From: Chlamydiia bacterium
GTDB lineage: Bacteria; Chlamydiota; Chlamydiia; Chlamydiales; 2-12-FULL-49-11
NCBI GenBank assembly: GCA_022601595.1
Contig: JAJACI010000002.1
Coordinates: 12,523 to 76,522 of the forward strand
Direction: 5' to 3'
DNA: 64,000 nt
Shown here: positions 3 to 36,669 of the stretch, in pieces
How the letters are laid out: each line of letters begins with the position of its first letter
How positions within the stretch are numbered: the stretch's first letter is position 1
The notes under the pieces: generated by a model
What the model was told of the DNA's origin: nothing
The model's database searches: none
Seen by the model: the letters and a program-made list of their open reading frames with translations, nothing else
Made by a program: the position numbers and the translations under genes

Positions 3-1817
3 GTGGGATCTGCTCTTACCATTGGTGATTTAACGGCTGCACCTGGCACCGAAATAAAAATCGGTGCAAAAAGTTTAACGTTTGGAACAGCAAACAATGC
101 CACCATAGCTGGAATTATCAGCGGAGATAGTGGCGGCACTATTACTAAAACAGGCACCGGATCGGTTACTTTATCAGCAACCAACACTTTTGCAGGAACC
201 GTAAATGCCTCCCAAGGAACTCTTGTGGTAAACGGTGTGCTCCCTGGGGATGTCTCGGCTGCAAATAGTGCTACGATAAAAGGGACAGGATCTATCGGAG
301 GAAAGCTCTCTATTGCAAGCGGAGCCACACTCACTCCAGGAAATTCTATTGGAACCATTACGCTAGGGAGCCTCTCTTTAAGCGCAGGCTCTACCACAGA
401 AATAGAATTTGATCCTCTAAGCAGCTCGGTAATAAATGTTACCGGCGCGGCCGCCCTTGCCGGAGAGCTGACTCCTGTTTTTGATGCGGGAGATTATCCC
501 CTTACAGGGAGCTATGAAATCTTAACAGCAAGCTCCATAACAGGAACATTTGATAGCATTAGCAGCGGCCTTCCAGATTTTGTTTTCGCTCTTGATTATA
601 CAGGAACCACAGTTACTTTAACATACACCAACCCTATTCCTACCGATGGTCTCACAGGAAATTTACTAAAATTTGCAAATTATCTAAATACGTATTCTAC
701 CATCAATGATGATTTTATTGCACTTGCAGCCCTTTCAGGAGACGCTTTATACAATGCCCTTAACAGCGCCTCCCCTGCAAGAAATGCTTTTCCCACTTAT
801 GTATCTCAAATGACAGCATTTACTTTAAGCCATAATTTAAGCAACTATTTAGATGGGAAAAGGTTTTTAAACTCTTATGATATTTCTGGAGAGATTGCAG
901 ATATTTGTATGTCTAACCAAAATCACTGGCAATCTTCTAATACCTACTGGAACCAATCAGAAAATAATAATGCTCAGCCACAATATTGCTTTTGGATAGA
1001 TGGATTTGTCGATTTTGCAAATGGTGGCGCGGAAAACCAAAATGTACCTTTTGATTTTATCACCGGCGCCGTGCTTGTTGGAGTTGATTTTGAAAGCGCC
1101 TATAAAGAAAATATTCTTGGTATCGCTGCCGGTTACGCAAACTCCTGGGTGGAGGATAATAGAGGAATGGGGTCATCTGACATATCATCTCTTGCAGCCA
1201 CCATATATACCGATTATATGTACGATATATTGTATATGCAAGGAGCTTTTTGGGCAGTGCTTGAGTTAACTAATAATCAAAGAATCATTTCCTATCCAGG
1301 AGTGCATGCCAAGGCTACATCGAATTTTACTGGGTGGCAAATCAACCCTCACGTAGAACTTGGAGTTAGTGTAGGCAATAAAATGCTTGATGTTCAACCT
1401 TATATTGCCTTTGACTATGTGCAAAATCAGCAAGATGGCTTTACCGAAACAGGTGCTGGCACTTTTAATATGACTCAAAAAGCCCAGAAATCTTCTATGC
1501 TACAAACAGAGGTGGGGATGAGATTCTACCAAGGGGTGAATAGATGCTATTACCGCCTGGGAATCAAAGAAAAGATAAGTTTCATCAACCGAGTCCCTTT
1601 TGACACAGGAAAAGTTACTACCGCTATTTTTAATGTGGATCATTTTGTTACGCTAACCTCTTTTACTCAAACTCAAACCCTTGCTGCCGTAAGTCTCTCG
1701 CTATTTATTCAAGCTGGAAAAGAAAAAAACACCATCATCTCCATTGGTTATGACGGCCTTTTTGGAAACCAGTATGTATCTAATGGAGCAAACCTAACTA
1801 TCTCCACCTCATTTTAA
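3..1817 (+). CDS. Autotransporter / Pmp-like outer membrane protein, C-terminal part (5' end lies upstream of window)
   Basis: ORF open to window edge. Passenger repeats of the G-GTL-L-G-NTF-G type, then a C-terminal domain collinear with the two downstream paralogs and ending in an aromatic residue (ISTSF). Confidence 0.85.
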   Translation: MGSALTIGDLTAAPGTEIKIGAKSLTFGTANNATIAGIISGDSGGTITKTGTGSVTLSATNTFAGTVNASQGTLVVNGVLPGDVSAANSATIKGTGSIGGKLSIASGATLTPGNSIGTITLGSLSLSAGSTTEIEFDPLSSSVINVTGAAALAGELTPVFDAGDYPLTGSYEILTASSITGTFDSISSGLPDFVFALDYTGTTVTLTYTNPIPTDGLTGNLLKFANYLNTYSTINDDFIALAALSGDALYNALNSASPARNAFPTYVSQMTAFTLSHNLSNYLDGKRFLNSYDISGEIADICMSNQNHWQSSNTYWNQSENNNAQPQYCFWIDGFVDFANGGAENQNVPFDFITGAVLVGVDFESAYKENILGIAAGYANSWVEDNRGMGSSDISSLAATIYTDYMYDILYMQGAFWAVLELTNNQRIISYPGVHAKATSNFTGWQINPHVELGVSVGNKMLDVQPYIAFDYVQNQQDGFTETGAGTFNMTQKAQKSSMLQTEVGMRFYQGVNRCYYRLGIKEKISFINRVPFDTGKVTTAIFNVDHFVTLTSFTQTQTLAAVSLSLFIQAGKEKNTIISIGYDGLFGNQYVSNGANLTISTSF

Positions 1818-1877
1818 TATTTGAAAAGAATGGCTCGTAACTGTTATAAAACAATTCTCTAATTGGATATATAGAAT

Positions 1878-4800
1878 ATGAAAAAAGCCCTTTTCGTTTT
1901 ATTTTTTGTAGGTTTTACCTCTATACAAGCTGTACCTTTTACGGTGACAAATGACAGCGATTTTGCCCCTGGATCATTTCGTATTCAAGCAGGAAACGCT
2001 GGTGCTGATGCATTCAATATCCTTGACTTTGATGGGGATTATACCATTGCCATTGAAGATCCAGTAATCCCATTAAACAGCGCTTTTACCATTGATTTTT
2101 CTACCCATGACATTACCTTTTCTGGAGGAACAGCAAACCCAGGTCTAAGCATAACAAATGGTGTTACACCCACTTTAACCTCTTCCGATAACACCTCTAG
2201 CCTAACCATTAATGTAAACATTGGAGAAACTCTTGCCCCTGGCGGCTTTATTATTACCGATAAGGCCAATGTTGAATTTAGCGGGGTAAATACTTTTACT
2301 GGCGGGATAACCATACAAGTGGATGAATTGATATCACAAGGAAGTGTTATCTTGAGCAACAATCAAGGTCTTGGAACTGGAAATGTGTTATTTGCTCAAG
2401 GCACCTTACATCTAAACGATACTATCACCATGGCAAATGCTATTGACCTATCGGTAGGTATAGGCGCTCGACAAATAAATGTTGCAGGTGGAGGGTCCGC
2501 TACTGTGTCAGGAAATATGATTGGAGCAAGCTCGCAAACGCTGTATAAACTTGGCAATGGAACCCTCTTTTTAACTGGGGTAAACACCTCCTCTAGCCCA
2601 ATAACTATTTCCGAAGGGACATTGGCTTATAAAGATGGAGGACTCTCTTCCTCAACAGGTGATGTACTGATTAACAATACAACCTCGCTTGATATTTCAG
2701 CTATTTCAGCCTCTGGTACTACTGTTGCAGATCTTTCAGCCGTCTCTGGAACCACTATCGTTTTAGGAGGTAAAAGCCTCACTTTTGGAACATCATCAAG
2801 TACTGAAATTGCAGCAATTGTATCAGGTAGTGGCGGATCTTTAGTCAAGATAGGAGATGGCACCGTTACCCTTTCCGGTGTGAATACGTATACCGGAGGA
2901 ACATCCCTGGATAACGGATCCCTTTCCCTAAGCAATAATGCAGCTTTAGGAACAGGGGACCTTACCATGCAAAGTGACACTACATTGCTTTTCGATGGCG
3001 TTACCAGTTTAGCTAATAATATAATATTCAATGAAGCAGGAACAAGCTCTTTGAATATTGGAGCAGGTGAAACAGCTACATTAGACGGAATTATTAGTGG
3101 AGTAGGTACTTTTGAGAAACAAAATGAAGGAACCCTACAATTAGAAAGTGCAAATACCTATAGCGGCGGAACGGCGCTTACAGATGGTACTATTATTCTC
3201 AATAATAATACCGCAATGGGATCAGGAGCATTGACCTTTACTAATGGAACCTTACAAGTTGATGGAGGGATCACTGCAGGAAATACCATTACCCTTGGCT
3301 CTGGAACCTCTCGAACAATCAGCGTTCTTACAGGAGATATAGCAACACTCACAGGAGTGATTAGCGGGCCGGGCTCCCCCCCTTTGATTAAATCAGGCGA
3401 AGGGACGCTTAACCTCTCTGCTGTAAATACGTATACAGGAGCGACCACCATTTCTCAAGGTACACTTGCCTATACTGGCGCAGGATTACCCTCGGCTACT
3501 GGTGATATGCTTATCCAAGGGACATCTACCTTTAATATTTCAGCTATTACTTCTGATCAGGCAACTGTTGGAAATCTAACTTTATCTTCAGGTGCGAGTT
3601 TAGTCTTGGGCAGTAAAAGTCTTACCTTTGGAGGAGATAGCGACACCAATCTTGAAGGGGTAATTAGTGGGAGTGGCGGCTCCTTAATCAAGACAGGAGA
3701 TTCTGTATATACCCTTTCAGGAACAAACACGTATACCGGAGGAACTACTCTGAATGGTGGTACGCTTGTTTTAGATAATAATAGTGCATTAGGAGGTGGA
3801 GGAGCCCTAGATATGAGCGATGGCACAACCTTAACTCTAATGAATGAGATCGATGCCTCTAATAATATTTCAATCACTTCTCAAGGAACAAGATCTTTCA
3901 ACGTTGACTTAGTGTCAACTGCAGTAATAGACACAGGAACCCTTTCAGGGGTTATTAGCGGGGCGGGCTCTTTAGAAAAAACAGGAGAAGGCACCCTTGT
4001 TCTCTCAGGGGAAAACACCTATAGTGGCGGAACCACCATTTCACAAGGTATCTTAGAGGTATCGGGATCCCTTTTTAACACAGGATCTGTGACGGTAAAT
4101 GGCTCCTCCTCTTTTGACATGAGTGAAGTAACATCTGCCCTTACTATTGGAAGTTTAGAAGCGGCAAGTGGGTCTACCATAGAATTAGGAACAAAGAGCT
4201 TAACTTTTGGTGGAAGTAACAATACCACCATCGCAGGAGTTATTGAAGGAGACAGCGGCTCCTCTCTTACTAAAATAGGAACAGGGTCTGTTACTCTAAG
4301 CGGCGTAAATACTTTTGATGAAACAATGACCGTTTCTGGGGGAACGCTTATTGTAAATGGCACTCTTCCCGGCTCTGTTACCATGGGGACATCTACCACG
4401 TTAAAAGGAACAGGAACGATTGGAGAAGAGGTGAGCGTTGCAAGTGGGGCCTCTATTCGGCCGGGAAATTCTATTGGTACTATCACTGTTGGAACATTAA
4501 CTTTGGATACAGGATCCACTACAAGTATAGAATTTGATGATACAAGCACCTCTTTGATAAAAGTTACCGGCGCAGCAGACATTGCCGGAACATTACATTT
4601 GATTTTTGACCAAGGAAATTATCCTCTAACTGGGAGCTATCAAATATTGACCGGCGCTCCTGTGATAGGAACGTTTAGCGCTATTACAGGCGATGTTACT
4701 GGATTTGATTTCTCATTAAGCTACTCTACAACAGATGTTCTTTTACTCTTTACCAAGGTGATCCCCACTGCAGGGCTTACAGGAAATATCCTCAAGTTTG

Positions 4801-5939
4801 CAAACTATTTAAATGCATCTGCCCCTGCATCTAATGAATATAGCGCTTTAACCGATCTTCGTGGAAGCGCGGTAGCTGTTGGAGTAAACAGCGCCTCCCC
4901 TGCTAGAAATGCCTTTAGTACCTATGTAACGCAGATGGGAGTATTCTCCCTTAGTCATATAGTGGATAATTACCTCTCTGGAAAAAGGTTTTTTAATGCT
5001 CATGATGCCCCTGGTGAGATAACAGACATTTCCCTCTCCGGCAAAGATTTGCTCGCAGCAAATAAAAACTGGGGATATCCAGAAATAGAGATGAATAAAC
5101 CTGAGCATACTCTTTGGGCGAGCGGCTTTGTAGACTTTGCACGGCAAGATAGCGAGAGTCAAAATCTTCCTTTTGATTTTATATCCAGTGGCTTTATATT
5201 GGGATTAGACTCTCAAAGTGTTTTTAAAGATGATGTGGTAGGCGCCGCTTTTGGCTATGTCAACTCCCAGGTAGATGATAATGGCAATATGGGATCCTCA
5301 AGTATTTCCTCGTTTGCAGTATCCATATATGGTGATTATTTTTGGGAGTATTTTTATTTCCAGGGGGCGCTGTGGGGAGTCTCCCACCAAATCAACAGCA
5401 ATAGAAAGATCTCCTATCCGGGTGTACAAACCAAAGCATCGAGTAGATTTAGTGGCTGGCAGGTAGCTCCTCATTTAGAATTTGGTTTTACCTTTGGATC
5501 ATCCCTATTTGAAGTGCAACCATACGCCTCCTTTGACTATGTATACAACTGGGAAGATAGCTACGAAGAAACCGGCGCTCTCAATTTAAATATGAGGGTA
5601 AAAGCTCAAGAGTCTTCGATGTTACAAACGCAAATTGGGATGAAGTTTTTTCAATCAACTTTTATATCCTCTGGCCGCTTTGGTATGAAAGAAGGTATTA
5701 GTTATATTAACCGTACTCCGTTCGAGACAGGCACCATTACAACCTCTATTTTTGGAGCTACCGATTTTGTCTCTTTAAGATCTTTTACCGAGTCACAAAA
5801 TCTTGGCGCCTTAGATATAGAAATGTTTTTCCAAGTAGGAAAAGAAAAAAATACCACCATTTCCCTTGCATATGAAGGTCAATATGGAGATCAGTATATC
5901 TCCAATGAATTAATCCTTACCCTCTCTCATATTTTTTAA
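1878..5939 (+). CDS. Autotransporter / Pmp-like outer membrane protein (1353 aa)
   Basis: Signal-peptide-like N-terminus MKKALFVLFFVGFTSIQA. Many copies of the autotransporter-associated beta-strand repeat (GTL.L.G.NTYTGGT.I..GTL). Conserved PGNSIGTITVG...IEFD segment and a beta-barrel-like C-terminus ending LSHIF. Confidence 0.9.
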   Translation: MKKALFVLFFVGFTSIQAVPFTVTNDSDFAPGSFRIQAGNAGADAFNILDFDGDYTIAIEDPVIPLNSAFTIDFSTHDITFSGGTANPGLSITNGVTPTLTSSDNTSSLTINVNIGETLAPGGFIITDKANVEFSGVNTFTGGITIQVDELISQGSVILSNNQGLGTGNVLFAQGTLHLNDTITMANAIDLSVGIGARQINVAGGGSATVSGNMIGASSQTLYKLGNGTLFLTGVNTSSSPITISEGTLAYKDGGLSSSTGDVLINNTTSLDISAISASGTTVADLSAVSGTTIVLGGKSLTFGTSSSTEIAAIVSGSGGSLVKIGDGTVTLSGVNTYTGGTSLDNGSLSLSNNAALGTGDLTMQSDTTLLFDGVTSLANNIIFNEAGTSSLNIGAGETATLDGIISGVGTFEKQNEGTLQLESANTYSGGTALTDGTIILNNNTAMGSGALTFTNGTLQVDGGITAGNTITLGSGTSRTISVLTGDIATLTGVISGPGSPPLIKSGEGTLNLSAVNTYTGATTISQGTLAYTGAGLPSATGDMLIQGTSTFNISAITSDQATVGNLTLSSGASLVLGSKSLTFGGDSDTNLEGVISGSGGSLIKTGDSVYTLSGTNTYTGGTTLNGGTLVLDNNSALGGGGALDMSDGTTLTLMNEIDASNNISITSQGTRSFNVDLVSTAVIDTGTLSGVISGAGSLEKTGEGTLVLSGENTYSGGTTISQGILEVSGSLFNTGSVTVNGSSSFDMSEVTSALTIGSLEAASGSTIELGTKSLTFGGSNNTTIAGVIEGDSGSSLTKIGTGSVTLSGVNTFDETMTVSGGTLIVNGTLPGSVTMGTSTTLKGTGTIGEEVSVASGASIRPGNSIGTITVGTLTLDTGSTTSIEFDDTSTSLIKVTGAADIAGTLHLIFDQGNYPLTGSYQILTGAPVIGTFSAITGDVTGFDFSLSYSTTDVLLLFTKVIPTAGLTGNILKFANYLNASAPASNEYSALTDLRGSAVAVGVNSASPARNAFSTYVTQMGVFSLSHIVDNYLSGKRFFNAHDAPGEITDISLSGKDLLAANKNWGYPEIEMNKPEHTLWASGFVDFARQDSESQNLPFDFISSGFILGLDSQSVFKDDVVGAAFGYVNSQVDDNGNMGSSSISSFAVSIYGDYFWEYFYFQGALWGVSHQINSNRKISYPGVQTKASSRFSGWQVAPHLEFGFTFGSSLFEVQPYASFDYVYNWEDSYEETGALNLNMRVKAQESSMLQTQIGMKFFQSTFISSGRFGMKEGISYINRTPFETGTITTSIFGATDFVSLRSFTESQNLGALDIEMFFQVGKEKNTTISLAYEGQYGDQYISNELILTLSHIF

Positions 5940-5956
5940 CCTTTGGATAGTCTCCT

Positions 5957-8900
5957 ATGAAAAAATTTCTTGTAATACTATTTTTCACCATTTTTGGACT
6001 TGTCCAAATAGAGGGTTATGAAGTGACTAGCGGAGATGATGCTGGTGCTGGCACGCTTCGTGAAGGATTAAACACAGGAAGCAGCGGCGATACCTTTACT
6101 TTTAGCGGCGATTTTTCTATTCCTATTACTTCTGCGGCTTTACCTTTTGATTATATAAATACCATTGATGTGGGAACAAATACCATTAGACTTACAACAG
6201 ATACCCCTCCTTATGGCGTGGTCTTTGGCGGCGGAGGAACGGTCACTTCTACAATAGATGGTACAGGACTACTTACCGTAGATGTTGTAGTATCAGAAAC
6301 AGGCGGCACAACTGGGTCCTTTATCAAAACAGGATCGTCGATATTTTCTCTTGATACGGCAAATACCTTTACCGGCGGCGTAGCTCTACAGGAAGGAACC
6401 CTTCTACTTACAAACAGCACAGGACTTGGTACAGGCGATCTGACTATTAGTGAAGATGCTATCTTATTAGTAACAGGAGGAATCAATGTTGCAAATAGTA
6501 TCGATCTAACCGGATCGGGCGAACGAGAAATTACTGCCTTAGCTGCTACAGATATTGGGACCTTATCAGGGATTATTAGCGGAGATGCAAATGCCTTGCT
6601 GTTAAAAACAGGAGCTGGAGAGCTTACCCTTTCTGGCGCAAATACCTTTCCAGGTGGCGTAGCCCTACAAGAAGGAACCCTTATTGTAGGCAATAATATA
6701 GCACTAGGTTCTGGTACCCTTGATTTAACAAATGACGGCACCGCCGCAACCAACTTTGAAATAAGCGATGGGATAACTGTGACAAACCCTATTACCATAG
6801 GTGGCGCCGAAGTAAAAAATATAGAAGTTGGAACGGGAGATACAGCAAACTTATCAGGAGTGATTAGCGGCGCCTCAGGCACAGCCTTGTATAAAACAGG
6901 TGACGGAACCCTTACATTAAGTGCCGCAAATACCTATTCTACCGGAACCATAATTAGCGCCGGTACATTAGCTCTTACAGGATCGCTAGATAGTACAGCA
7001 GATGTAACCGTCAATGGTTCTGCCATTTTCGATATTAGCGCAGCAGCATCTGCGCCTACTATTGGGGCGTTAGAGGCAGAGTCTGGGACGTTGCTAAAAT
7101 TAGGAGCTAAAAGCTTAACCTTTGGAACAAACGACGCTACCAAAACCATTGCAGGAGTGGTTAGCGGATCTGGAGGATCTTTGATCAAACAAGGGACCGG
7201 ATCGGTAACTTTTTCTGCCACAAATACCTTTACCGGAGGAGTAACATTAAATGCTGGAACCATTGTCCTGGATAATAATGCCGCGCTGGGAACAGGCTCT
7301 CTTACCATGGCGCCGCTCACTACACTTACTACCAATCCAGGGATCACCGCTGCTAATAAAATTGCCTTAAGCACTGCTGGTTCTAGAGATTTTACTGTTG
7401 GGGCAGGAACAACTGGGACCCTCTCTGGCATTATTAGCGGATCAGGAGGGCTTGAAAAGAAAGATTCAGGAACACTTACCCTTTCTGGCGCAAATACCTA
7501 TAGCGGCGGAACCGTTATCACTGAAGGAACCTTAGCCCTCAAAGGATCCCTTCTAAAAACAGGTGATGTAACTATCAATAACTCCTCCTCGTTAGATATT
7601 AGCGAGGTCACAGCAGCCCTTACCATCGGATCCTTAAATGCTGCAAGTGGATCTACAGTGAAATTGGGAACAAAGTCTTTGACCTTTGGAACAGATAGCG
7701 ATGCGGTAATTGCAGCAATTGTTAGTGGAGATACAGGATCTTCTTTGAACAAAAAAGGAACAGGAACCGTTACCTTTTCAGCGGTAAATACCTTTGCAAA
7801 TACATTGACCGTATCGGCAGGAACAGCGGCTATAAACGGCACTCTACCAGGCGCTGTAACGGTGAAAAGCTCTGCAGCTGTAAAAGGAACGGGAACCATC
7901 GGCGGCAAACTTACCGTTGAAAGCGGAGCCGCATTTACCCCAGGCAACTCTATTGGCACCATCACAGTAGGAAGCCTCTCTTTAGACTCCGGCTCTACAA
8001 CAAATATAGAATTTGATCCAGCAACCAGCTCGCAAATAAAAGTTACCAATTCTGCCACCCTTGCAGGAACCTTAAACTTAACAAATAATCCAGGCGATTA
8101 TCCCCTTACCGGTAGTTATTTATTCTTAACAGCAGATTCTATCAGCGGCACTTTTGATTCCATTACCGGAGGACATCAAGAATTTATTTTTTCTGTAGAT
8201 TATACCTCAACCAGCGCTACCTTACTTTATAGTAGCCCTATTGCCACCGGAGGACTTACAGGAAATATATTGACCTTTGCAAATTACTTAAATGCTTACT
8301 CTCCTGTAACAGATGAATTTGTTGCCTTATCAGAACTTTCTGGGCAAACATTATACAATGGAATCAATAGCACCTCCCCGGCTAGAAATACCTTTAACAC
8401 TTATACCTCACAGATCGCTCTATTTTCACTAAGCCAAAAGGTAAGCAACTACCTAACTGATAAAAGATTTTTCAGCTCTCATGATACCTCATTGAATATC
8501 GCAGATATTTGCTCGTCTAATAATGACCATTTGATTGCAGTAAACTCCTATTGGGATGATGCTGAATATAAAAGGGCCGAGCCTACCTACGCCTTTTGGA
8601 TCAATGGTTTTGCCGATTTTGCAGGCCAGGGAGGCGCCAATCAAAACGTTCCTTTTGATTTTATTACCGGCGGCGTGCTGGCCGGCTTAGACTGGGAAAG
8701 CTCTTATAAAGAACATATCCTAGGCATCGCTATTGGCTATGCAAACTCCCAGATTACCGATCACGCAAGGATGGGATCTTCTGAAATCTCCATGCTGGCC
8801 ACTTCCCTCTATGCAGACTTTTCCTATCACTCCTTTTATGCCCAAGCAATGTTTTGGGGCGTTTTTAATCTTATTGATAATCGCCGAATCATTTCCTACC

Positions 8901-9421
8901 CTGGGGTGAATACAAAAGCGAAAGCTGAATACTGCGGATGGCAAATCAATCCCCACATAGAACTTGGCTATAGCCACAGATCACAAATATTTGAAGCACA
9001 ATCCTATATCGCCTTTGACTACGTACAAAATGAACAAGATAGCTATAGTGAAAAAGGCGCTGGAAATCTAAATATGAGGGTGAAAAAACAAAAATCCTCC
9101 ATGCTACAAACCCAGCTGGGAATAAGATTCTACCAAGGAATCGATCGGCCCCATTACCGCTTTGGTATCAAAGAAAACATTAGCTTTATCAACCGAATAC
9201 CTTTTGATACAGGCACCCTAACTACCGCCATTTTTGGCGCTGATAACTTTGTAACCCTTCACTCTTTTACACAAACACAAACTCTTGGCGCCATTAATAT
9301 AACCCTTTTCACCCAAGTAGGAAAAGAAAAAGACACCATCATTTCCCTTGGCTACCAAGGAGAATTTGGAAACCAATATATTTCAAACAGCGCAAGCCTC
9401 ACCATCTCTACAGAATTTTAA
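5957..9421 (+). CDS. Autotransporter / Pmp-like outer membrane protein (1154 aa)
   Basis: Signal-peptide-like N-terminus MKKFLVILFFTIFGLVQIEG. Same passenger repeats. C-terminal domain closely alignable to ORF 3..1817 and ending ISTEF. Confidence 0.9.
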   Translation: MKKFLVILFFTIFGLVQIEGYEVTSGDDAGAGTLREGLNTGSSGDTFTFSGDFSIPITSAALPFDYINTIDVGTNTIRLTTDTPPYGVVFGGGGTVTSTIDGTGLLTVDVVVSETGGTTGSFIKTGSSIFSLDTANTFTGGVALQEGTLLLTNSTGLGTGDLTISEDAILLVTGGINVANSIDLTGSGEREITALAATDIGTLSGIISGDANALLLKTGAGELTLSGANTFPGGVALQEGTLIVGNNIALGSGTLDLTNDGTAATNFEISDGITVTNPITIGGAEVKNIEVGTGDTANLSGVISGASGTALYKTGDGTLTLSAANTYSTGTIISAGTLALTGSLDSTADVTVNGSAIFDISAAASAPTIGALEAESGTLLKLGAKSLTFGTNDATKTIAGVVSGSGGSLIKQGTGSVTFSATNTFTGGVTLNAGTIVLDNNAALGTGSLTMAPLTTLTTNPGITAANKIALSTAGSRDFTVGAGTTGTLSGIISGSGGLEKKDSGTLTLSGANTYSGGTVITEGTLALKGSLLKTGDVTINNSSSLDISEVTAALTIGSLNAASGSTVKLGTKSLTFGTDSDAVIAAIVSGDTGSSLNKKGTGTVTFSAVNTFANTLTVSAGTAAINGTLPGAVTVKSSAAVKGTGTIGGKLTVESGAAFTPGNSIGTITVGSLSLDSGSTTNIEFDPATSSQIKVTNSATLAGTLNLTNNPGDYPLTGSYLFLTADSISGTFDSITGGHQEFIFSVDYTSTSATLLYSSPIATGGLTGNILTFANYLNAYSPVTDEFVALSELSGQTLYNGINSTSPARNTFNTYTSQIALFSLSQKVSNYLTDKRFFSSHDTSLNIADICSSNNDHLIAVNSYWDDAEYKRAEPTYAFWINGFADFAGQGGANQNVPFDFITGGVLAGLDWESSYKEHILGIAIGYANSQITDHARMGSSEISMLATSLYADFSYHSFYAQAMFWGVFNLIDNRRIISYPGVNTKAKAEYCGWQINPHIELGYSHRSQIFEAQSYIAFDYVQNEQDSYSEKGAGNLNMRVKKQKSSMLQTQLGIRFYQGIDRPHYRFGIKENISFINRIPFDTGTLTTAIFGADNFVTLHSFTQTQTLGAINITLFTQVGKEKDTIISLGYQGEFGNQYISNSASLTISTEF

Positions 9422-9724: not shown

Positions 9725-9884
9725 GGAGACTCTGATAAACGAGCAGTTTTATAATCTCCCAGATTTCTGATACATCCTATTTTTCGTGGCGCCCCATCCC
9801 TACAGGGATGCCGCTTACTCCAAAATCGGATTTATTTCAAAAAATCTGAAGAAATTCTAAAAAGTGCAGTTTATCAGACTCTCC
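9725..9884 (-). mobile_element. Family A 160-bp foldback MITE-like element, copy A1
   Basis: Termini ggagactctgataaac ... gtttatcagactctcc, internal near-palindrome catccctacagggatg, flanked by ttaa/ttaa. Near-identical to seven other 160-bp copies in the window. Confidence 0.85.
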
Positions 9885-9888
9885 TTAA

Positions 9889-9904
9889 GGAGACTCTGAT
9901 AAAG
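9889..9904 (+). repeat. Solo family A terminal repeat
   Basis: ggagactctgataaag lies directly after A1, separated by ttaa. Only the terminal 16 nt are present. Confidence 0.5.
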
Positions 9905-10382: not shown

Positions 10383-10441
10383 TACAGTTTTTTTTGCAAC
10401 CCATTTTGTATATCGGATGAGGCGTGTGCGTGTAGGCATTC
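10383..10441 (+). repeat. Truncated family C element (left arm plus apical motif only)
   Basis: tatcggatgaggcgtgtgcgtgtaggcattc matches the stem end and apex of C3 (tcggatccgacgtgtgcgtgtaggcactc), but no complementary right arm follows. Confidence 0.35.
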
Positions 10442-10460
10442 AAAAATAAGACTCTGAATA

Positions 10461-10733
10461 GATTTTAGAGAATTTTTTCAGCGCTTTTTTTCTATAGGAG
10501 ACTCTGATAAACTACACTTTTTAGAATTTCTTCAGATTTTTTGAAATAAATCCGATTTTGGAGTAAGCGGCATCCCTGTAGGGATGGGGCGTAGCGAAAA
10601 ATGGAATTTATAAGAAATCTGGAAAATTATAAAACTGTCCGTTTTTCAGAGTCTCCTATATAGGATCTGACGTGTACATACAGGTACTCTAGGATCCTAT
10701 ATAGAAAAAAAGCGCCCAAAAAAACTCTAAAAT
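10461..10733 (+). repeat. Family C long hairpin C1, left arm interrupted by element A2
   Basis: Left arm gattttagagaattttttcagcgctttttttctata[A2]tataggatc pairs with right arm gatcctatatagaaaaaaagcgcccaaaaaaactctaaaa. Apex at 10668-10692 is tgacgtgtacatacaggtactctag. Confidence 0.6.
10497..10656 (+). mobile_element. Family A 160-bp foldback MITE-like element, copy A2
   Basis: ggagactctgataaactacac...ccgtttttcagagtctcc, flanked by tata/tata. Sits inside the left arm of hairpin C1. Confidence 0.9.
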
Positions 10734-10752
10734 GGAGGTCCACCTCCATTTT
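10729..10752. repeat. Small palindrome carrying an 11-nt copy of the tmRNA 3' flank/end
   Basis: aaaatggagg-tcca-cctccatttt. The left half, aaaatggaggt, equals 10991-11001 at the real tmRNA 3' end. Confidence 0.5.
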
Positions 10753-10757
10753 TTGAA

Positions 10758-10827
10758 GGTGTTTTTTCTTATTTCGATTTGATAGTGTACAGGTAGTACT
10801 CGGAAAATCGAAATAAGGAAAAAAAGC
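10758..10827 (+). repeat. Family C hairpin C2
   Basis: Arms ggtgttttttcttatttcgattt / aaaatcgaaataaggaaaaaaagc. Apex at 10781-10803 is gatagtgtacaggtagtactcgg. Confidence 0.6.
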
Positions 10828-10832
10828 AAAAA

Positions 10833-10852
10833 AAAATGGAGGTGGGGAGATT
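10833..10852 (-). repeat. 20-nt direct duplicate of the tmRNA 3' end (att-like relic)
   Basis: aaaatggaggtggggagatt is identical to 10991-11010, which spans the 3' terminus of ssrA. Confidence 0.8.
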
Positions 10853-10884
10853 AAAGTGTCTATTTCTCAATGGCACTTGTAGAA

Positions 10885-10994
10885 TTTTGATGAGTTATTT
10901 TTTAGAAGATCTTTTCTAATTCGGATCCGACGTGTGCGTGTAGGCACTCTAGGATCCGAATTAGTGAAAGATCTTCCAAAAATAACCATCAAAA
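10885..10994 (+). repeat. Family C long hairpin C3, abutting the tmRNA 3' end
   Basis: Arms ttttgatgagttattttttagaagatcttttctaattcggatcc / ggatccgaattagtgaaagatcttccaaaaataaccatcaaaa. Apex at 10929-10951 is gacgtgtgcgtgtaggcactcta. Ends 1 nt before ssrA. Confidence 0.7.
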
Positions 10995-11410
10995 TGGAGG
11001 TGGGGAGATTCGAACTCCCGTGCTAGATAACTCCACAACTATATCTACATACTTAGTCACCCGTTAATAACCTTATGAAATGACGACAGATGACAAGCAC
11101 ATGTAACATAAGGCTTTTTCTAAATCTTGAATAGTTGGGCCGAAAAAGAATTCCCATCTATTCATACCGTGATATATTACGATGAGAATAAGACCTCTCG
11201 GTCCGAATCTTAAACCATCGACGAAACTACCTTTCGGTAATTAAGCTGCAACTGAAGCGGCATTTTCAGCAGTAAACTGCTCAAAATTACCAACTATAAC
11301 ATTACTGTTTTTTGGTGCATTTATTTTTTTTCCGGTTTTTTTAGGAGGCCAACCAGAACCCTCCGTATGCAATAATTACTTATACCATCCAGGCGATACC
11401 ACTCACCCCC
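10995..11410 (-). ncRNA. ssrA: tmRNA (transfer-messenger RNA)
   Basis: 5' GGGGGUG pairs with 3' CACCUCC, giving a 7-bp acceptor stem with a G3:U wobble and discriminator A; CCA is not encoded. T-arm is GGGAG-UUCGAAU-CUCCC. Internal tag frame 11318->11241 reads GCA CCA AAA ... GUU GCA GCU UAA = APKNSNVIVGNFEQFTAENAASVAA. The segment before the resume codon (GGUUGGCCUCCUAAAAAAACCGG) resembles the E. coli ssrA PK1 region. Confidence 0.9.
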
Positions 11411-15446: not shown

Positions 15447-15474
15447 TAAAAACTGTCCGTTTATCAGAGTCTCC
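15447..15474 (+). repeat. Family A right-end fragment
   Basis: tctaaaaactgtccgtttatcagagtctcc matches the right terminus of family A and lies back-to-back with A3. Confidence 0.5.
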
Positions 15475-15478
15475 CTAA

Positions 15479-15638
15479 GGAGACTCTGATAAACGAGCAG
15501 TTTTATAATCTCCCAGATTTCTGATACATCCTATTTTTCGTGGCGCCCCATCCCTACAGGGATGCCGCTTACTCCAAAATCGGATTTATTTCAAAAAATC
15601 TGAAAAAATTCTAAAAGGTGTAGTTTATCAGAGTCTCC
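15479..15638 (-). mobile_element. Family A 160-bp foldback MITE-like element, copy A3
   Basis: Full-length copy flanked by ctaa/ttaa. Its right terminus supplies the last three codons and the TGA stop of ORF 15628..16251. Confidence 0.9.
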
Positions 15639-16251
15639 TTAAGATTAAAGCGCAGAGTTTGTCTTTAGCCATTTGATTATAATTTTTTCCGATGTGCATC
15701 ACGCCATCGGAAAATTTCATTTTAAGAGTCCCATCAGCCATGGAGTACTCATCAAATACATCAAAATATAATATCTTTGATTTTTTAAGTTTGGCATTTA
15801 GCCTTTTTGTATATTTCACTCGAGCCTCAGCAGGACCCACAGATGGATACCCATCCACCGTTAATTCTCGTACAGGTGGTGTTACTCCAAAAATAACAGG
15901 AATAACCTTATACTTTTTAGCAATTTTCTTTATTTGCAAGAGGTACCCTTCTACCAGTTTTGACAAAACCTCATCAAGTTCTCTTTTTTCCTTGGTCACC
16001 TGTTTATCGATATGGCAGCGCACATCAATTTCTCCAAAACAAAAAACCAAATAGTCTCCCTCTTTCATATCAGCAAAATATTTGTCATCACACCCTCGTA
16101 TTCCAAAAGAATACATCGTTTGAGAACCAACAAAATGAGTGGTCAGAGGAACATTTATAATCCCCTCATCGCTCAAATAAAATATAGAGTCCCCTTCACT
16201 GGTAAAGGTAAAATCGCAATGGCTATCACCAATGGTATGTACTTTTGTCAT
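15628..16251 (-). CDS. SGNH/GDSL-like hydrolase family protein (207 aa)
   Basis: N-terminal block I-like motif HTIGDSHC and a C-terminal FSDGVMHIG (Asp/His block-V-like). The C-terminal RRL-stop is encoded by repeat A3. Confidence 0.5.
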   Translation of the reverse strand: MTKVHTIGDSHCDFTFTSEGDSIFYLSDEGIINVPLTTHFVGSQTMYSFGIRGCDDKYFADMKEGDYLVFCFGEIDVRCHIDKQVTKEKRELDEVLSKLVEGYLLQIKKIAKKYKVIPVIFGVTPPVRELTVDGYPSVGPAEARVKYTKRLNAKLKKSKILYFDVFDEYSMADGTLKMKFSDGVMHIGKNYNQMAKDKLCALILRRL

Positions 16252-18506: not shown

Positions 18507-18666
18507 GGAGACTCTGATAAACTGCACTTTTTAGAATTTCTTCAGATTTTTTGAAAGGTATTCTATTTTGGAGTAAGCGGCATCCCTGTAGGGATGGGGC
18601 GTAACGAAAAATAGGATTTATAAGAAATCTGGGAGATTATAAAACTGCTCGTTTTTCAGAGTCTCC
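18507..18666 (+). mobile_element. Family A 160-bp element, copy A4 (tandem with A5)
   Basis: Full-length copy with left flank ttaa, separated from A5 by only taa. Confidence 0.9.
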
Positions 18667-18669: not shown

Positions 18670-18829
18670 GGAGACTCTGATAAACTGCACTTTTTAGAAT
18701 TTCTTCAGATTTTTTGAAATAAATCCGATTTTGGAGTAAGCGGCATCCCTGTAGGGATGGGGCGTAACGAAAAATAGGATTTATAAGAAATCTAAGAGAT
18801 TATAAAACTGTCCGTTTTTCAGAGTCTCC
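18670..18829 (+). mobile_element. Family A 160-bp element, copy A5
   Basis: Full-length copy in direct tandem with A4; right flank taaa. Confidence 0.9.
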
Positions 18830-18832
18830 TAA

Positions 18833-18953
18833 AGGGAAGATAAGGTGTTTTTTAATCAGAAGATTTTTTATTTCCCTGGTCGACAGTGTATAGTTAATAC
18901 TCAGAGACCAGGGAAGTGAAAAATATACGATTAAAAAACACCTTAGGTTCCCT
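18833..18953 (+). repeat. Family C long hairpin C4, immediately after the phoH2 stop codon
   Basis: Arms agggaagataaggtgttttttaatcagaagattttttatttccctggtc / gaccagggaagtgaaaaatatacgattaaaaaacaccttaggttccct. Apex at 18882-18905 is gacagtgtatagttaatactcaga. Confidence 0.7.
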
Positions 18954-20288
18954 TTATAAAACTTTGGCGGCTAGCGCGGCAAGCTTAGAACGTTCTGTGT
19001 GCTCGAAGTAGATGGAACCAAACAAAGACTCTTTTTTCATTCTCCCTACCGTATACACCAGGCCGTTAGAATCTCTATCTAAATAGGGATTATCAATCTG
19101 TGTTGGATCTCCAAGGATTACAATCTTTGTATTCTCTCCTACTCTTGAGATAAGGGTTTTTAGTTCATGGGGAGTAAGGTTTTGCGCTTCGTCAATAATA
19201 ATATAGGCATTAGAAAAAGATCTTCCGCGCATATAGGTAATTGCCTCCACTTGAAATTTATTACTTTCAAGGATCCATTTTTTTGTTTCGGCGCCATCTT
19301 CGCCACCAGATTCACAGATGTAATCAAGGTTATCAAAGAAAGGTGCAAGCCATGACTGAAGTTTTTCTTCTTTATTGCCAGGTAAAAAGCCAATATCTTT
19401 ACCAAGTGGCATGATAGATCGTGCTATGATAATTCTATTGTATACATTATCATCAAAAACTTTTTGCAAACCTGCGGCAAGTGCTAACAGTGTTTTACCA
19501 GTACCTGCATTCCCGATAAAAGAAACCAGTTTCACATCATCACGAAGTAAAAGGTCAAGGGCGCATTTTTGTTCTACATTACGAGGTTTTACTCCCCAAA
19601 CATTTTGCCTTCCTTTCAAAAGAGGCTCAAGTTTATTATCACGAGCATTGACTTTTGCAATAGCAGAGGAATTTGCTTCCCCTTTTAATACTAAGTAAGA
19701 ATTTGGATAGTAATTGCCTGCAGGTATTGCTATCTCTCCCTCTTTATAAAACTCATCAATCACATCTTTTGTGACATCCACCGTAAATATACCTTTATAT
19801 AAACCCTCATACGTTTCTTGATTGCTCTTAAAGGTTGCTGTATCTACACCAATTGTTTCAGCTATAATTTTTGTCACAGGATCTTTAGAAACAAGCATCA
19901 CATCATGTCCTAATTCTTTTAACTGATGAGCTGATGATAATAATCGATGGCGAGTTCTGTCAGGAGATAAACCAGTTAACACAGAATCCTTATCCTTTTT
20001 ACTCGGCTCTTTTTCTATAACAATTCTAAATGATCCCCCTTTGGCCAAAGGTATCCCCTTTTGAATATCTCCCTGTCTTGCCACTTCATCAATAAACTTC
20101 ATCGCTTTACGAGCATTTCTACCCATCTCACCGTGCATTGCCTTCTTCCTATCTAGCTCCTCCAGAACAACTCCTGGTAAAACTATGTCATGCATTACAT
20201 ATTGGTGAAAAGCGGAAGGATCATGTAATAATACGCTTGCATCAAGCATACATGATTTTCTATCCTTTAAAGTGGATTTTTTATCCAT
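18954..20288 (-). CDS. phoH2: PIN-domain/PhoH-like ATPase (PhoH2 / YlaK type)
   Basis: N-terminal PIN-like MLDASVLLHDPSAF...LPGVVLEELD. C-terminal PhoH ATPase with Walker A GNAGTGKT and IIIDEAQN. Confidence 0.85.
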   Translation of the reverse strand: MDKKSTLKDRKSCMLDASVLLHDPSAFHQYVMHDIVLPGVVLEELDRKKAMHGEMGRNARKAMKFIDEVARQGDIQKGIPLAKGGSFRIVIEKEPSKKDKDSVLTGLSPDRTRHRLLSSAHQLKELGHDVMLVSKDPVTKIIAETIGVDTATFKSNQETYEGLYKGIFTVDVTKDVIDEFYKEGEIAIPAGNYYPNSYLVLKGEANSSAIAKVNARDNKLEPLLKGRQNVWGVKPRNVEQKCALDLLLRDDVKLVSFIGNAGTGKTLLALAAGLQKVFDDNVYNRIIIARSIMPLGKDIGFLPGNKEEKLQSWLAPFFDNLDYICESGGEDGAETKKWILESNKFQVEAITYMRGRSFSNAYIIIDEAQNLTPHELKTLISRVGENTKIVILGDPTQIDNPYLDRDSNGLVYTVGRMKKESLFGSIYFEHTERSKLAALAAKVL

Positions 20289-23885: not shown

Positions 23886-23896
23886 TTACTCATACC

Positions 23897-23947
23897 GATC
23901 AATAAAAAAGGCGGAAGATTTCACATCTTCCGCCTTTTTTATTGATC
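23897..23947. terminator. Bidirectional Rho-independent terminator
   Basis: gatcaataaaaaaggcggaagat-ttcac-atcttccgccttttttattgatc: GC-containing stem with A-run and T-run flanks, between convergent genes. Confidence 0.8.
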
Positions 23948-23956
23948 AGAATAAAT

Positions 23957-24445
23957 TCATCTTTCTTTTTTAGGTAAAGCGTTCAACATTTTTTCCCATA
24001 TACTAGGTTTTCCATTAGCGATATCTCCCATCCACTCTATAGGTTTTTCCTTTGCTTTCAGCATAACCCTTCTTTTCTCATCTCTCCAATCAAGCTCAGA
24101 TAATCTTAGTAAATCATTACAATAAGCACTATAATTACAATTGCATGCGGTAGGCACATCTTGCCCTGCTACTATTCTTACTTTTGCCTCTATCTCCCCT
24201 TTCTTATCCATTCCCTTAGGATCATCATTTTTAATCGGGTAATTCACTTTTGCATATATCAGATGATCACTAATTATCTCTTCTTGTTTCCAAGAGTTTA
24301 GCATAGAACTAATAAATCCAAAAAAAGAAAAAGAACATAACGTCACTTTTCTATCAGATGAATTTTTCGAAAATCTTTTTATAGCTGGATTCATATTTTG
24401 ACGAGCAGCCATCGCCATAGACCTAGTTGCGCTTAAAACAATCAT
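23957..24445 (-). CDS. Hypothetical protein (162 aa)
   Basis: ATG-to-stop ORF between a terminator and rmuC. No recognisable motif. Confidence 0.45.
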   Translation of the reverse strand: MIVLSATRSMAMAARQNMNPAIKRFSKNSSDRKVTLCSFSFFGFISSMLNSWKQEEIISDHLIYAKVNYPIKNDDPKGMDKKGEIEAKVRIVAGQDVPTACNCNYSAYCNDLLRLSELDWRDEKRRVMLKAKEKPIEWMGDIANGKPSIWEKMLNALPKKER

Positions 24446-27080: not shown

Positions 27081-27083
27081 AAA

Positions 27084-27117
27084 AGCCTACTACAATTGTA
27101 GTAGGCTAAACTATTTT
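27084..27117. terminator. Hairpin terminator between convergent genes
   Basis: agcctactaca-at-tgtagtaggct (11-bp arms), followed by aaactattttt. Confidence 0.6.
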
Positions 27118-27152
27118 TGGTAAATCTAGAGAGTGCTGCCTATAAGCTTGAT

Positions 27153-28556: not shown

Positions 28557-28616
28557 AACTTCTCTCCATACACCTTTAGATATACTCAACTATTAATATC
28601 TTTTGATAATTGTAAA

Positions 28617-35535: not shown

Positions 35536-35590
35536 TCATTGGTAAAATAGATTTATCAAGAAATACAGAATAAAAAGTAGGTGAGAAATT

Positions 35591-36637: not shown

Positions 36638-36669
36638 AAAAAAAAGAGCCTTTTCAGGCTCTTTTTTTT
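36638..36669 (+). terminator. Rho-independent terminator after nrdB
   Basis: aaaaaaaagagcc-ttttca-ggctctttttttt. Confidence 0.75.

Follow-up and report, generated by a model that had tools for sequence, protein, structure and literature searches.

How can a hairpin of more than 100 nt keep its two arms complementary while the sequence of those arms changes from copy to copy? This question is raised by a stretch of DNA of 64,000 nucleotides from a Chlamydiia bacterium (hereafter the window), in which long hairpins with a common apex stand beside the tmRNA gene and at the ends of several protein genes. A preliminary description, made from the letters of the window, counted at least eight copies of this hairpin family (family C), saw in the arms a compensatory change preserving structure, and proposed a terminator, another RNA element of the 3' end or a structure-maintaining foldback transposon. 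Here we ask which of these readings is favoured by the family's distribution, folding and insertion sites.

Family C is represented in the window by seven intact copies, one split copy (C7) and one apex remnant, which bears out the earlier count (Table 1). The coordinates of the intact copies (core matches) come from a regular expression together with a covariance model, R1. C5 is the sole intact copy on the plus strand, and the apex remnant is too degenerate to be matched by R1. The apex strings and stems given in the preliminary description are correct. Two copies are disrupted by other elements: the distal arm of C1 is truncated after ~12 nt by a copy of a 160-bp GGAGACTCTGATAAAC element (10497–10656), and the apex of C7 is interrupted (59473–59625) by a 153-bp element with 20-nt inverted ends, AGTCATTNCCGTTTCATATG. 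The tandem duplication C7/C8 is collapsed in the GenBank MAG. More generally, family C repeats break or collapse MAG assemblies, and contigs terminate in them. The copies themselves are not an assembly artefact, since the same ones occur in independent assemblies (NCBI MAGs, ENA, Logan, JGI).

Table 1. Family C copies and the tmRNA gene in the window (R1, covariance model)
Feature	Position	Strand	R1 core	Evidence and remarks
C3-like apex remnant (gcgtgtgcgtgtaggcattc) with trace of inner stem	10420–10443	-		Decayed; sequence inspection
C1, variant apex TAGAGTAC..GTACACGTC	10640–10725	-	10640–10725	R1 53.4 bits, E 1.5e-07; z -4.6
C2, full hairpin	10738–10848	-	10747–10837	R1 87.5 bits; z -11.3 sense, -9.9 antisense
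C3, 111-nt hairpin (folded as 10884–10995)	10884–10994	-	10894–10985	R1 73.2 bits; z -13.1
tmRNA gene (ssrA)	10995–11410	-		Rfam RF00023, 139.9 bits; ARAGORN
C4, full hairpin	18826–18958	-	18848–18938	R1 78.1 bits; z -10.1 sense, -12.0 antisense
C5, between nrdA and nrdB	35415–35545	+	35435–35524	R1 81.2 bits; empty orthologous sites in L090, L091, L093, L098
C7, duplicate of C8, split	59410–59686	-		Regex; parts 59410–59472 and 59626–59686
C6, GGGTCTATTTTTCC-type arms, weaker outer stem	59715–59805	-	59715–59805	R1 82.6 bits; z -4.6
C8, 52-nt arms	59842–59975	-	59861–59955	R1 86.2 bits

The C1–C3 cluster is anchored at the 3' end of the tmRNA gene, with the foot of the C3 hairpin (its last base at 10994) adjoining the first base after the tmRNA CCA end. 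The outer stem of C2, CCACCTCCA(T)n pairing with (A)nTGGAGGTGG, repeats the tmRNA 3' end together with a mirror image of it. The phoH2 stop codon (18954–18956) lies within the outer stem of C4; in C5, CCAATAACTGTTAAT (the nrdA end, its stop codon and the spacer) pairs with ATTAACAGTCATTGG on the far side; and the C8 stem spans the lysS stop codon (59968–59970) plus ~7 nt of coding sequence (CDS). The gene contacts first noted at these four loci therefore hold, with the stem covering the stop codon at each of the three protein genes. In 4/4 cases the sense strand carries GAGUAC...GUACAC, so that the four upstream transcripts do share one strand of the apex.

The copied unit is a core of ~92–96 nt within full hairpins of 110–140 nt. 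Its two ~35-nt arms, in which internal mismatches are conserved, enclose an invariant, asymmetric apex that reads TCY-GAGTAC-(4–10 nt)-GTACAC-TATC in the sense of the adjacent gene. Invariant alignment columns are confined to this apex, which carries an asymmetric invariant internal loop; conservation is weak at the core termini (TTTTGG/CCAAAA) and lacking in the outer columns. A K-turn reading of the internal loop was rejected by inspection, as its GA/AG arrangement misfits the consensus.

Family C is apparently an undescribed repeat family, restricted to a small environmental group within the chlamydiae. When 185,579 species genomes were scanned for the exact motif, one Chlamydiia MAG had 26 matches, spread over 21 stretches, and another had 2, the rest being singletons; enrichment was confined to Chlamydiia MAGs. 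Model R1 matched neither the 38 singleton stretches outside Chlamydiia nor any of the 18 stretches from a metagenome scan, and both sets are chance hits, so that no copies came from the metagenomes. Beyond the window, the covariance-model search of the sampled loci yielded 40 model-strand matches at E < 1e-4, 32 of them in loci of the sister MAG JAJACQ01. It also recovered the family in three other relatives, with no matches in loci from unrelated taxa. When family C was compared with Rfam, nothing except tmRNA passed the gathering threshold; at a permissive E-value, only generic long-hairpin miRNA precursor models appeared, far below threshold. Full-text literature searches gave no description of family C either, in agreement with the earlier remark that no element with this architecture had been described.

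The copies fold much better than shuffled controls. For C2, C3, C4, C5 and C8 the minimum free energy (MFE) lies between -42 and -75 kcal/mol (z between -7.9 and -13.1), a stability matched by 0/200 dinucleotide shuffles; C6 and the truncated C1 reach z -3.5 to -4.6. Across 35 copies, 90.1% of cells are paired compared with 75.0% in shuffles, and two-sided changes occupy 130 cells (29.7 expected), a value reached by 0/500 shuffles. Slid controls in the same test are at most 51% paired, and RNAalifold reports double changes in 14 of 16 inner pairs. At the level of single loci, C8 and its orthologue in locus L066 show at least six doubly compensated differences. Orthologous arms differ by 13–50% between genomes with 95% identical LysS, and some of the differences are compensated transversions. 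The picture of a conserved apex between arms that diverge yet stay self-complementary is thus upheld against shuffled controls.

The two strands of the hairpin fold unequally. The strand complementary to the adjacent gene's mRNA is the more stable one in 32 of 35 copies, by a mean of 8.5 kcal/mol. The excess of G.U pairs (60 vs 17) is located in the conserved core and is absent from the locus-specific outer stems, so we read it as a family trait and not as evidence of ongoing selection at each locus. An in-situ strand bias was rejected on the same ground.

The flanks offer a clue to how the arms come to match. The far flank beyond the core is an inverted copy of the gene-side flank; it includes the spacer, frequently the stop codon too, and as many as 13 bases of CDS (13 nt in L005), so that each copy has a private outer stem. 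This stem extends over at least two stop-codon bases in 12 of 24 copies and over at least three CDS bases in 9 of 24. The nrdA end ...TGCCAATAA is common to all relatives, and therefore ancestral, and its complement TCATTGG lies beyond C5. In the same way, GAGATGA at the end of lysS has its mirror, TCATCTC, on the far side of both C8 and the L066 orthologue. The mirrored length varies from 3 to 22 nt, and the mirror is complete already in L004 and L019, which have near-identical cores. In L094 and L095 a new mirror, fitted to the TAG stop codon of these relatives, occurs together with the remnant of an older one that the window shares, which indicates repeated rounds of copying. Since the far flank mirrors the gene-side flank, coding bases included, self-templated copying is suggested as the process that creates and renews the pairing, and it probably also keeps the arms paired. 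The compensatory change of the preliminary description is therefore real, while selection on an RNA structure is not required to explain it.

Family C is, or was, mobile, judging from near-identical cores at unrelated loci and from orthologous sites that are filled in some genomes and empty in others. The cores of L004 and L019 differ at one base and have unrelated flanks. The nrdA–nrdB site is filled in the window and in a relative with 95% identical LysS (L095–L097); L090, L091, L093 and L098 have a 20–28-nt spacer and no hairpin there. L098 belongs to a JAJACQ-like genome with many copies elsewhere, yet its nrdA–nrdB site is empty. At lysS, a copy is present in the window, L066, L071 and L055; L070 has a degenerate one, and in L068 the site is empty, its intergenic DNA not being alignable to filled sites and giving no exact insertion point. 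In the old orthologous copies at this site the apex is intact, down to 81–82% LysS identity.

Position and orientation are equally regular. Nearly all copies have one orientation; they stand 0–30 nt past a stop codon or, at the tmRNA, immediately behind the CCA. The distance from stop codon to apex is 30–65 nt in 20 ORF-adjacent copies. Together with two tmRNA ends and the lysS copy of L055, these make about 23 gene 3' ends in this orientation, and one or two cases oppose it, one of them clear (L048_3202). By our own arithmetic, a bias of 23 vs 1 has a binomial P of ~3e-6. The fixed orientation relative to the upstream gene, first described at four loci, thus extends to about 23. Copies often sit between convergent genes, and their neighbours are core genes in conserved synteny (lysS–cysS, nrdAB, ssrA); lysS, tmRNA, nrdA and phoH2 carry copies in several species. 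Gene 3' ends in the window are also crowded by two further repeat families, and selection or compaction may therefore account for some of the positional signal. The 160-bp GGAGACTCTGATAAAC family, used as an orientation control, offers ~4 sense copies and 1 antisense copy, too few to judge.

Taken together, and with slightly better than even confidence, we regard family C as a REP/MITE-type palindromic repeat, non-coding, interspersed and confined to one lineage, unusual in its architecture and with probably self-templated arms. The mirror flank would arise by fold-back or template-switch DNA synthesis, primed at the hairpin foot, at or soon after insertion. Repeated copying rounds, or conversion within the hairpin, would then keep fast-diverging arms complementary and produce an apparent compensatory evolution. 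On the mRNA, the hairpin would begin at or over the stop codon, and the invariant apex is a probable recognition site, either for a mobilising enzyme or for an RNA- or DNA-binding protein. A host function, if any, would by analogy most likely be that of stop-proximal REPs, i.e. an exonuclease barrier at the 3' end and/or a brake on the terminating ribosome. According to PMC12306157, such REPs halt the terminating ribosome and shield 3' ends; stalling is caused by REPs within 15 nt of the stop codon, the nrdAB transcript of E. coli included (with reference to Liang et al. 2015).

Several observations sit uneasily with this repeat reading. There is no transposase, integrase or reverse transcriptase among window ORFs of at least 100 aa, and no insertion sequence (IS) with family C ends in any locus examined. 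Direct target-site duplication is likewise absent, the core boundaries of L004 and L019 showing inverted-complement flanks, so that no known transposition chemistry is implied. The foldback transposon proposed earlier comes closer to the evidence, given the mobility of the family; neither a transposase (among the window ORFs) nor a direct target duplication was found. The conserved internal mismatches persist in the arms, and homogenisation of the arms cannot therefore be unrestricted. Moreover, because the better-folding strand is complementary to the adjacent mRNA, it fits a simple sense-mRNA role poorly, while the intact apex of old lysS orthologues suggests a constraint at host level, which would not be expected of a purely selfish element.

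Comparison with known systems shows both where family C belongs and where it departs. Like the REP/BIME elements of enterobacteria and pseudomonads, it consists of extragenic, multi-copy, imperfect palindromes, often just past stop codons, which occur singly and in clusters; E. coli even has a REP in the nrdA–nrdB spacer. However, REPs are 20–40 nt long (family C, 92–140 nt), and their conserved GTAG/CGTC head is at the stem foot and not at the apex. They also have a cognate RAYT transposase; none is known for family C, and the window ORFs gave no match to Y1_Tnp (RAYT) or another transposase. A strict gene-relative orientation and mirror copies of the flank further set family C apart from REPs.

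MITEs and long palindromic repeats (Correia/NEMIS, ERIC, RUP, Rickettsia RPE) resemble family C in being non-coding, 100–150 bp long and built of inverted arms, probably in being transcribed into mRNA 3' ends as hairpins, and in showing insertion polymorphism between relatives, which family C shows at nrdA–nrdB and lysS. Compensatory changes have been noted in ERIC. MITEs differ in that their terminal inverted repeats are conserved and shared with an autonomous IS, and in that a direct target-site duplication flanks them; in family C the ends are the most variable part and the flank is duplicated in inverted form, with no direct duplication. We know of no parent IS or autonomous partner for it. 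Template-switch (quasi-palindrome) mutagenesis also makes reverse-complement copies of adjacent sequence and perfects or expands inverted repeats. It can create, homogenise and expand hairpin arms, with apparent compensatory substitutions in one step (PMC8794818, PMC13100816). Yet it is a general mutational process, which leaves the conserved apex, the copy-and-paste spread, the link to stop codons and the orientation rule unexplained.

A selected cis-acting RNA element of the 3' UTR, i.e. a stabiliser or processing site with a putative protein-binding apex, is possible though on balance doubtful; it would evolve by ordinary compensatory mutations, with mobility incidental. It agrees with an apex that is invariant across species and in old orthologous copies, with the strong covariation, with the fixed position and orientation at gene 3' ends (tmRNA included) and with the recurrent occupation of lysS, tmRNA, nrdA and phoH2. 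On the other hand, 13–50% arm divergence at 95% LysS identity, with compensated transversions, is too fast for stepwise compensation, and mirror flanks that include coding bases and get renewed point to a copying mechanism. The empty sites of close relatives hold no replacement structure. The fold is also less stable on the sense transcript (32/35 copies), which weakens a purely sense-RNA reading of the 3'-end element suggested in the preliminary description.

A second alternative, which we hold to be rather unlikely, starts from the other strand: a strand-specific single-stranded DNA element with attC-like or REP/RAYT-like logic, active as the folded strand complementary to the adjacent mRNA. 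Its apex would be read by a putative recombinase or HUH enzyme, one end would be joined to the target and the 3' end of the hairpin would prime the inverted flank copy. Consistent with this are the folding asymmetry encoded in the core, the asymmetric invariant loop at the apex, the inverted and not direct flanks (3–22 nt, complete in L004 and L019) and an orientation tied to the gene. Integron attC sites are indeed 60–140-nt hairpins directly after or overlapping a stop codon, with fixed gene-relative orientation, a structure kept while arm sequence varies and one strand that is the better, active folder. However, the conserved part of an attC site is the stem foot (R''/R' boxes) and its centre varies, the reverse of family C, whose aligned copies share no motif of the attC core-site type (RYYYAAC ... 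GTTRRRY) at their outer ends. Integron attC sites occur in arrays of promoterless cassettes beside intI, whereas family C follows core genes (lysS, nrdA, phoH2, tmRNA) and the window has no integrase. In addition, no candidate enzyme gene is found in the window or linked to any copy in the loci examined, the stem foot has no conserved cleavage motif and no intermediate forms were observed. Mirror polarity, with the gene-side flank as template, implies synthesis of the sense strand and not of the better-folding one.

A bolder reading, quite unlikely as a whole, is an undescribed mode of DNA mobility in which the hairpin would join a gene's 3' boundary and its own 3' end would prime copying of the flank. 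The boundary would be sensed via the end of translation or transcription, or via a mature RNA 3' end (the tmRNA CCA). Each insertion would make a private mirror-image outer stem, the arms would be periodically re-templated and the apex would be the putative handle of a dedicated enzyme.

Canonical intrinsic termination, one of the original proposals, is an unlikely role for family C, and we give a low probability to intrinsic bidirectional terminators partly spread by duplication. The location at gene 3' ends, often between convergent genes, would suit them, as would the many JAJACQ01 outer stems of the form AAAAGG...CCTTTT directly past the stop codon and the T-run found 8–15 nt outside the core, in sense or antisense, in about a third of copies. 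In our census, for which the outermost MFE pair is uninformative as a stem boundary because A- and T-tracts pair mutually, a T-run at the expected offset occurs in ~12/38 copies in sense and 10/38 in antisense, and in none of C3, C4, C5 and C8. The U-tract is thus missing from most copies, and from nearly all in the window. C5, moreover, lies inside the nrdA–nrdB operon, where the 20–28-nt spacer of relatives holds a ribosome-binding site, and these two observations argue against the canonical reading. The stems are AT-rich, ~50 bp long and contain internal loops, while ordinary bidirectional terminators are present in the same genome and classical GC-rich, U-tract terminators coexist with family C in the window and next to the element in L094.

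Finally, insertion into the loops of pre-existing hairpins or terminators, with private outer stems as target sequence and not copies, is improbable: some outer stems are 10–13-bp, GC-rich, perfect and terminator-like (L019, L048_3198), and insertion sequences targeting REP loops exist, but we reject it for nrdA–nrdB and lysS, where outer stems hold conserved coding bases and the stop codon and four relatives have empty nrdA–nrdB sites without a hairpin, and in L094/L095 the mirror tracks the lineage's own stop codon.

If the self-templated repeat described here holds, family C would be an unusually clean natural case of hairpin arms that are created, extended and kept complementary by self-templated copying, with copying events made datable by a mirror that follows the stop codon of each lineage. 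This is directly relevant to how much of the 'compensatory covariation' in genomes is due to mechanism and how much to selection, and calls for caution in covariation-based RNA discovery. The strict one-way insertion rule at gene 3' ends is unexplained by any known bacterial transposition chemistry and, on the same proviso, would offer a way into a novel targeting mechanism or a novel protein that binds the apex. Family C would also be a convergent counterpart, in a distant host-associated phylum, of stop-proximal REPs, even at nrdA–nrdB. By analogy, this parallel suggests that placing hairpins on stop codons may be a means, used repeatedly, of adjusting 3'-end stability or the termination of translation.

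Seven intact copies of the hairpin repeat that we call family C lie in the window, as located by an apex regular expression and by R1, a covariance model for which 35 copies served as input. Three of these (C1-C3) are long hairpins within 10461-10994, immediately 3′ of the minus-strand tmRNA gene, and the eighth copy (C7) is interrupted at its apex. When folded as RNA, full copies reach -42 to -75 kcal/mol (z = -7.9 to -13.1), and none of 200 dinucleotide shuffles folds as well. The apices, stems and neighbours listed in the preliminary description were accurate.

Family C copies and other features of the window
Feature	Position	Strand	Remarks
C1, intact copy	10640-10725	-	apex regex + R1
C2, intact copy	10747-10837	-	apex regex + R1
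C3, intact copy	10894-10985	-	apex regex + R1
C4, intact copy	18848-18938	-	apex regex + R1
C5, intact copy	35435-35524	+	apex regex + R1
C6, intact copy	59715-59805	-	apex regex + R1
C8, intact copy	59861-59955	-	apex regex + R1
C7, eighth copy			apex split by 153-bp element (20-nt inverted ends) at 59473-59625
Apex remnant of family C	10420-10443
tmRNA gene	10995-11410	-	Rfam 139.9 bits; ARAGORN
tmRNA-end repeat	10730-10760, 10836-10855
~160-bp family, copies	9725-9884, 10497-10656, 15479-15638, 18507-18666, 18670-18829, 28617-28776, 44156-44315, 45356-45515
~160-bp family, partial copies	9889-9904, 15459-15474, 56466-56502, 57480-57495
~153-bp element	56511-56663, 59473-59625, 54118-54192		remnants near 29598 and 39682
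Tandem duplication with C7 and C8	59358-59470 vs 59788-59900		~430 bp
Intrinsic terminator	23886-23956		CAATAAAAAAGGCGGAAGAT...ATCTTCCGCCTTTTTTATTG, between genes 22674-23885 and 23957-24445
Intrinsic terminator	27081-27152		AAAAGCCTACTACAATTGTAGTAGGCTTTT, common to 26034-27080 and 27153-28589
Intrinsic terminators	~36640-36680, ~40375-40410
RmuC-family gene and PriA	24622-25896 and 54222-56438
Autotransporter genes	3-9421		second and third, 1878-5939 and 5957-9421

Read in the sense of the adjacent gene, the invariant part of the aligned copies is the apex TCY-GAGTAC-(4-10 variable nt)-GTACAC-TATC, whose fold combines an asymmetric internal loop with a 4-bp GTAC/GTAC helix, a mismatch and a G-C pair. 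On each side lies an arm of about 35 nt; the arms carry conserved internal mismatches and a bulge, and group into a few subfamilies common to several species (e.g. ...TTTTGGGTCTATTTTTCCTATTTTG... and ...GCGATCTCTTCCACTATTTTG...). Because the cores at two loci beyond the window, L004 and L019, differ at one base within unrelated flanks, the copied unit can be delimited: it is 92-96 nt long, from about GTCTTTTGG to CCAAAATAC. The outer stem that lies outside this unit, 8-25 bp long, is private to each copy.

The arms of family C evolve in concert. With 35 copies scored at 27 pairs, pairing is seen in 90.1% of cells, compared with 75.0% when partners are shuffled and at most 51% when the partner is slid by 1-3 columns. 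Cells changed on both sides number 130 against 29.7 expected, a count reached in none of 500 shuffles, and 14 of the 16 inner pairs show double changes by RNAalifold. Orthologous copies tell the same story at close range: C8 and the lysS copy of L066 (LysS 95% identical) have 52-nt arms that differ at 7 and 10 positions, with at least six compensated pair differences, T-A to A-T transversions among them. The claim that arms diverge between copies and stay paired is thus borne out.

Family C sits at gene 3′ ends in a single orientation. In 20 copies from the window and from loci of the sister MAG JAJACQ01, counted where the ORF lies on the strand opposite to the GTGTAC...GTACTC reading, the stop codon is 30-65 nt (mostly 40-56 nt) from the apex. 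Adding the JAJACQ01 lysS (L055) and the tmRNA ends of the window and L037 gives about 23 gene ends with the same relative orientation, against one clear exception (L048_3202) and one ambiguous case (binomial P ~3e-6, our own arithmetic), which upholds the fixed orientation first proposed. At a convergent gene pair (L032), two copies lie in opposite orientations, each at its own gene's end. The conserved core begins 5-31 nt past the stop codon (median ~12), or, at the tmRNA, directly past the encoded CCA. Within the window orientation tracks the gene (the nrdA copy is '+', the others '-') while GC skew is monotonic over the stretch, so replication strand is not the cause. Stop codons of the window are likewise crowded by two other repeat families, so selection or compaction may contribute; yet at L094, with free room between the stop and a native terminator, the family C copy lies 10 nt from the stop.

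Beyond the far side of the hairpin, the gene-side flank of family C recurs in inverted form, here called the mirror. In the window, as in every relative examined, nrdA ends in ...TGC CAA TAA, and the far side of C5 reads ...ATTAACAGTCATTGG, the complement of CCAATAACTGTTAAT. Likewise, the lysS end GAGATGA (last codons and stop) is mirrored as TCATCTC past C8 and its L066 orthologue, and at L005 13 coding bases are mirrored. Among 24 stop-abutting copies, the stem covers at least two stop-codon bases in 12 and at least three coding bases in nine. In four relatives (L090, L091, L093 and L098, the last a JAJACQ-like genome with many copies elsewhere) the nrdA-nrdB site is empty: a hairpin-free spacer of 20-28 nt that contains the ribosome-binding site. 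It follows that C5 is a derived insertion whose mirror was made from the gene end. Outer stems are neither cargo of the element nor pre-existing target hairpins, the latter being rejected for nrdA-nrdB and lysS by the empty sites and mirrored coding bases. Moreover, in the relative with a 95% identical LysS, the phoH2 and nrdA sites hold cores of a different subfamily, each with a new mirror that fits the TAG stop of its own lineage and, after it, what is left of an older mirror shared with the window. Copying therefore recurs at the same sites.

The tmRNA locus bears this same signature: a copy of the tmRNA 3′ end precedes each of C1, C2 and C3, and an inverted copy follows C2. The gene's final 16-20 nt (AATCTCCCCACCTCCA and a T-run) recur as a direct repeat 158 bp downstream, the repeat is also a near-perfect small palindrome (AAAATGGAGGT-CC-ACCTCCATTTT), and a degenerate version stands ahead of the second hairpin copy at L037. 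Alternatively, these repeats could be what remains of the att site of an island that integrated at ssrA. The tag encoded by this tmRNA is unusually long, at 25 residues (APKNSNVIVGNFEQFTAENAASVAA).

The two strands of the hairpin are not equivalent. The antisense strand (complementary to mRNA of the adjacent gene) is the more stable as RNA in 32 of 35 copies, by a mean of 8.5 kcal/mol (Wilcoxon P = 1e-6). Core G.U pairs number 60 antisense and 17 sense (P = 1.4e-5), and the private outer stems have no such bias (32 vs 27); the asymmetry therefore belongs to the core sequence of the family. It counts against a purely sense-mRNA function and would fit a relevant form that is strand-specific DNA or antisense RNA. 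The suggested compensatory selection on sense RNA is doubtful.

Family C is an interspersed palindromic repeat, restricted to one lineage and mobile now or in the past. When 185,579 species, each represented by a single genome, were scanned for the exact motif, JAJACQ01 had 26 matches spread over 21 stretches and a further Chlamydiia MAG (CAMDFS01) had two, all other matches being singletons. Since JAJACQ01 shares 76% nucleotide identity with the window across a conserved 3.6-kb segment, it is a different species. R1 recognises about 32 copies in JAJACQ01 loci and none in the loci of unrelated taxa, and likewise rejects 18 of 18 matches from a metagenome motif scan. LysS, NrdB and PhoH2 homologues led to relatives whose metagenome contigs contain further copies. 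The window LysS is itself encoded on JAJACR010000017.1 (MAG GCA_022601415.1, 'Chlamydiia bacterium') and in several independent assemblies of the same population. Rfam holds no matching family (only the tmRNA exceeds threshold; a permissive E-value adds only far-sub-threshold matches to generic plant miRNA hairpin models), and a full-text literature search found no description, in keeping with the view that the element is undescribed.

We class family C as a REP/MITE-like intergenic palindrome. It differs from a standard MITE in having neither conserved termini nor a parent IS, and no window ORF of at least 100 aa contains a transposase, integrase or RT domain; its distinctive traits are the conserved apex, the private mirror-image outer stems and the absence of direct target duplication. 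Family C is not a canonical terminator, and that proposed reading is doubtful: whichever direction is read, only about one copy in three has a T-run at the stem foot, and hardly any in the window do; C5 lies inside the nrdAB operon; and the window, like the surroundings of the element at L094, also has ordinary GC-rich bidirectional terminators. Those of the window are classical (A-tract, GC-rich stem, T-tract) and lie between or after genes. An attC site is rejected, as family C has no conserved foot motifs, cassette array or integrase. The suggested structure-maintaining foldback element holds. The concerted arms and the mirror flanks probably arise from self-templated synthesis at the hairpin, through fold-back priming or replication template switching; the latter is a known source of inverted repeats and also homogenises and expands them (PMC8794818, PMC13100816). 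A minority reading, which we consider improbable, is that insertion of family C at gene 3′ ends follows a new, self-priming mode.

Other repeats occur as well. A second family of ~160 bp has terminal inverted repeats GGAGACTCTGATAAAC (21 end matches vs 0.05 expected). Several of its copies likewise reach gene 3′ ends, with the stop of ORF 15628-16251 falling within a terminal repeat and one element adjoining the stop of 44316-44900. Another copy truncates the C1 hairpin. A third element of ~153 bp has 20-nt inverted ends AGTCATTNCCGTTTCATATG (8 end matches vs 0.01 expected), and one copy sits exactly in the GTAC helix of the C7 apex with an apparent short duplication, GTAT. On JAJACR010000017.1 the C7/C8 tandem duplication is collapsed to one hybrid copy and the intergenic region is ~275 bp shorter (L061 4581-5265); several other assemblies terminate inside these repeats, L063 and L064 ending 98 nt past lysS. 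In JAJACQ01 (L034 112-367, L045 1-259, L055 2476-2567) the gene-side arm of some hairpins is replaced by a common ...TATGATTTTCCATAAT... in tandem arrays with periods of 165-199 bp, which may be the end of yet another element targeting the hairpin arm. RmuC-family proteins are connected with keeping rearrangements at short inverted repeats in check, and the RmuC-family gene and PriA are possibly relevant to a genome rich in long palindromes. Three consecutive autotransporter genes, all with the beta-domain and the second and third with PATR passenger repeats, occupy the first 9.4 kb.

In mRNA, the hairpin would start on or just past the stop codon, which would make a stop-proximal REP element its closest functional analogy. 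Such REPs protect 3′ ends and stall terminating ribosomes, and the E. coli nrdAB transcript has one (PMC12306157). The invariant apex of family C suggests a putative protein partner.
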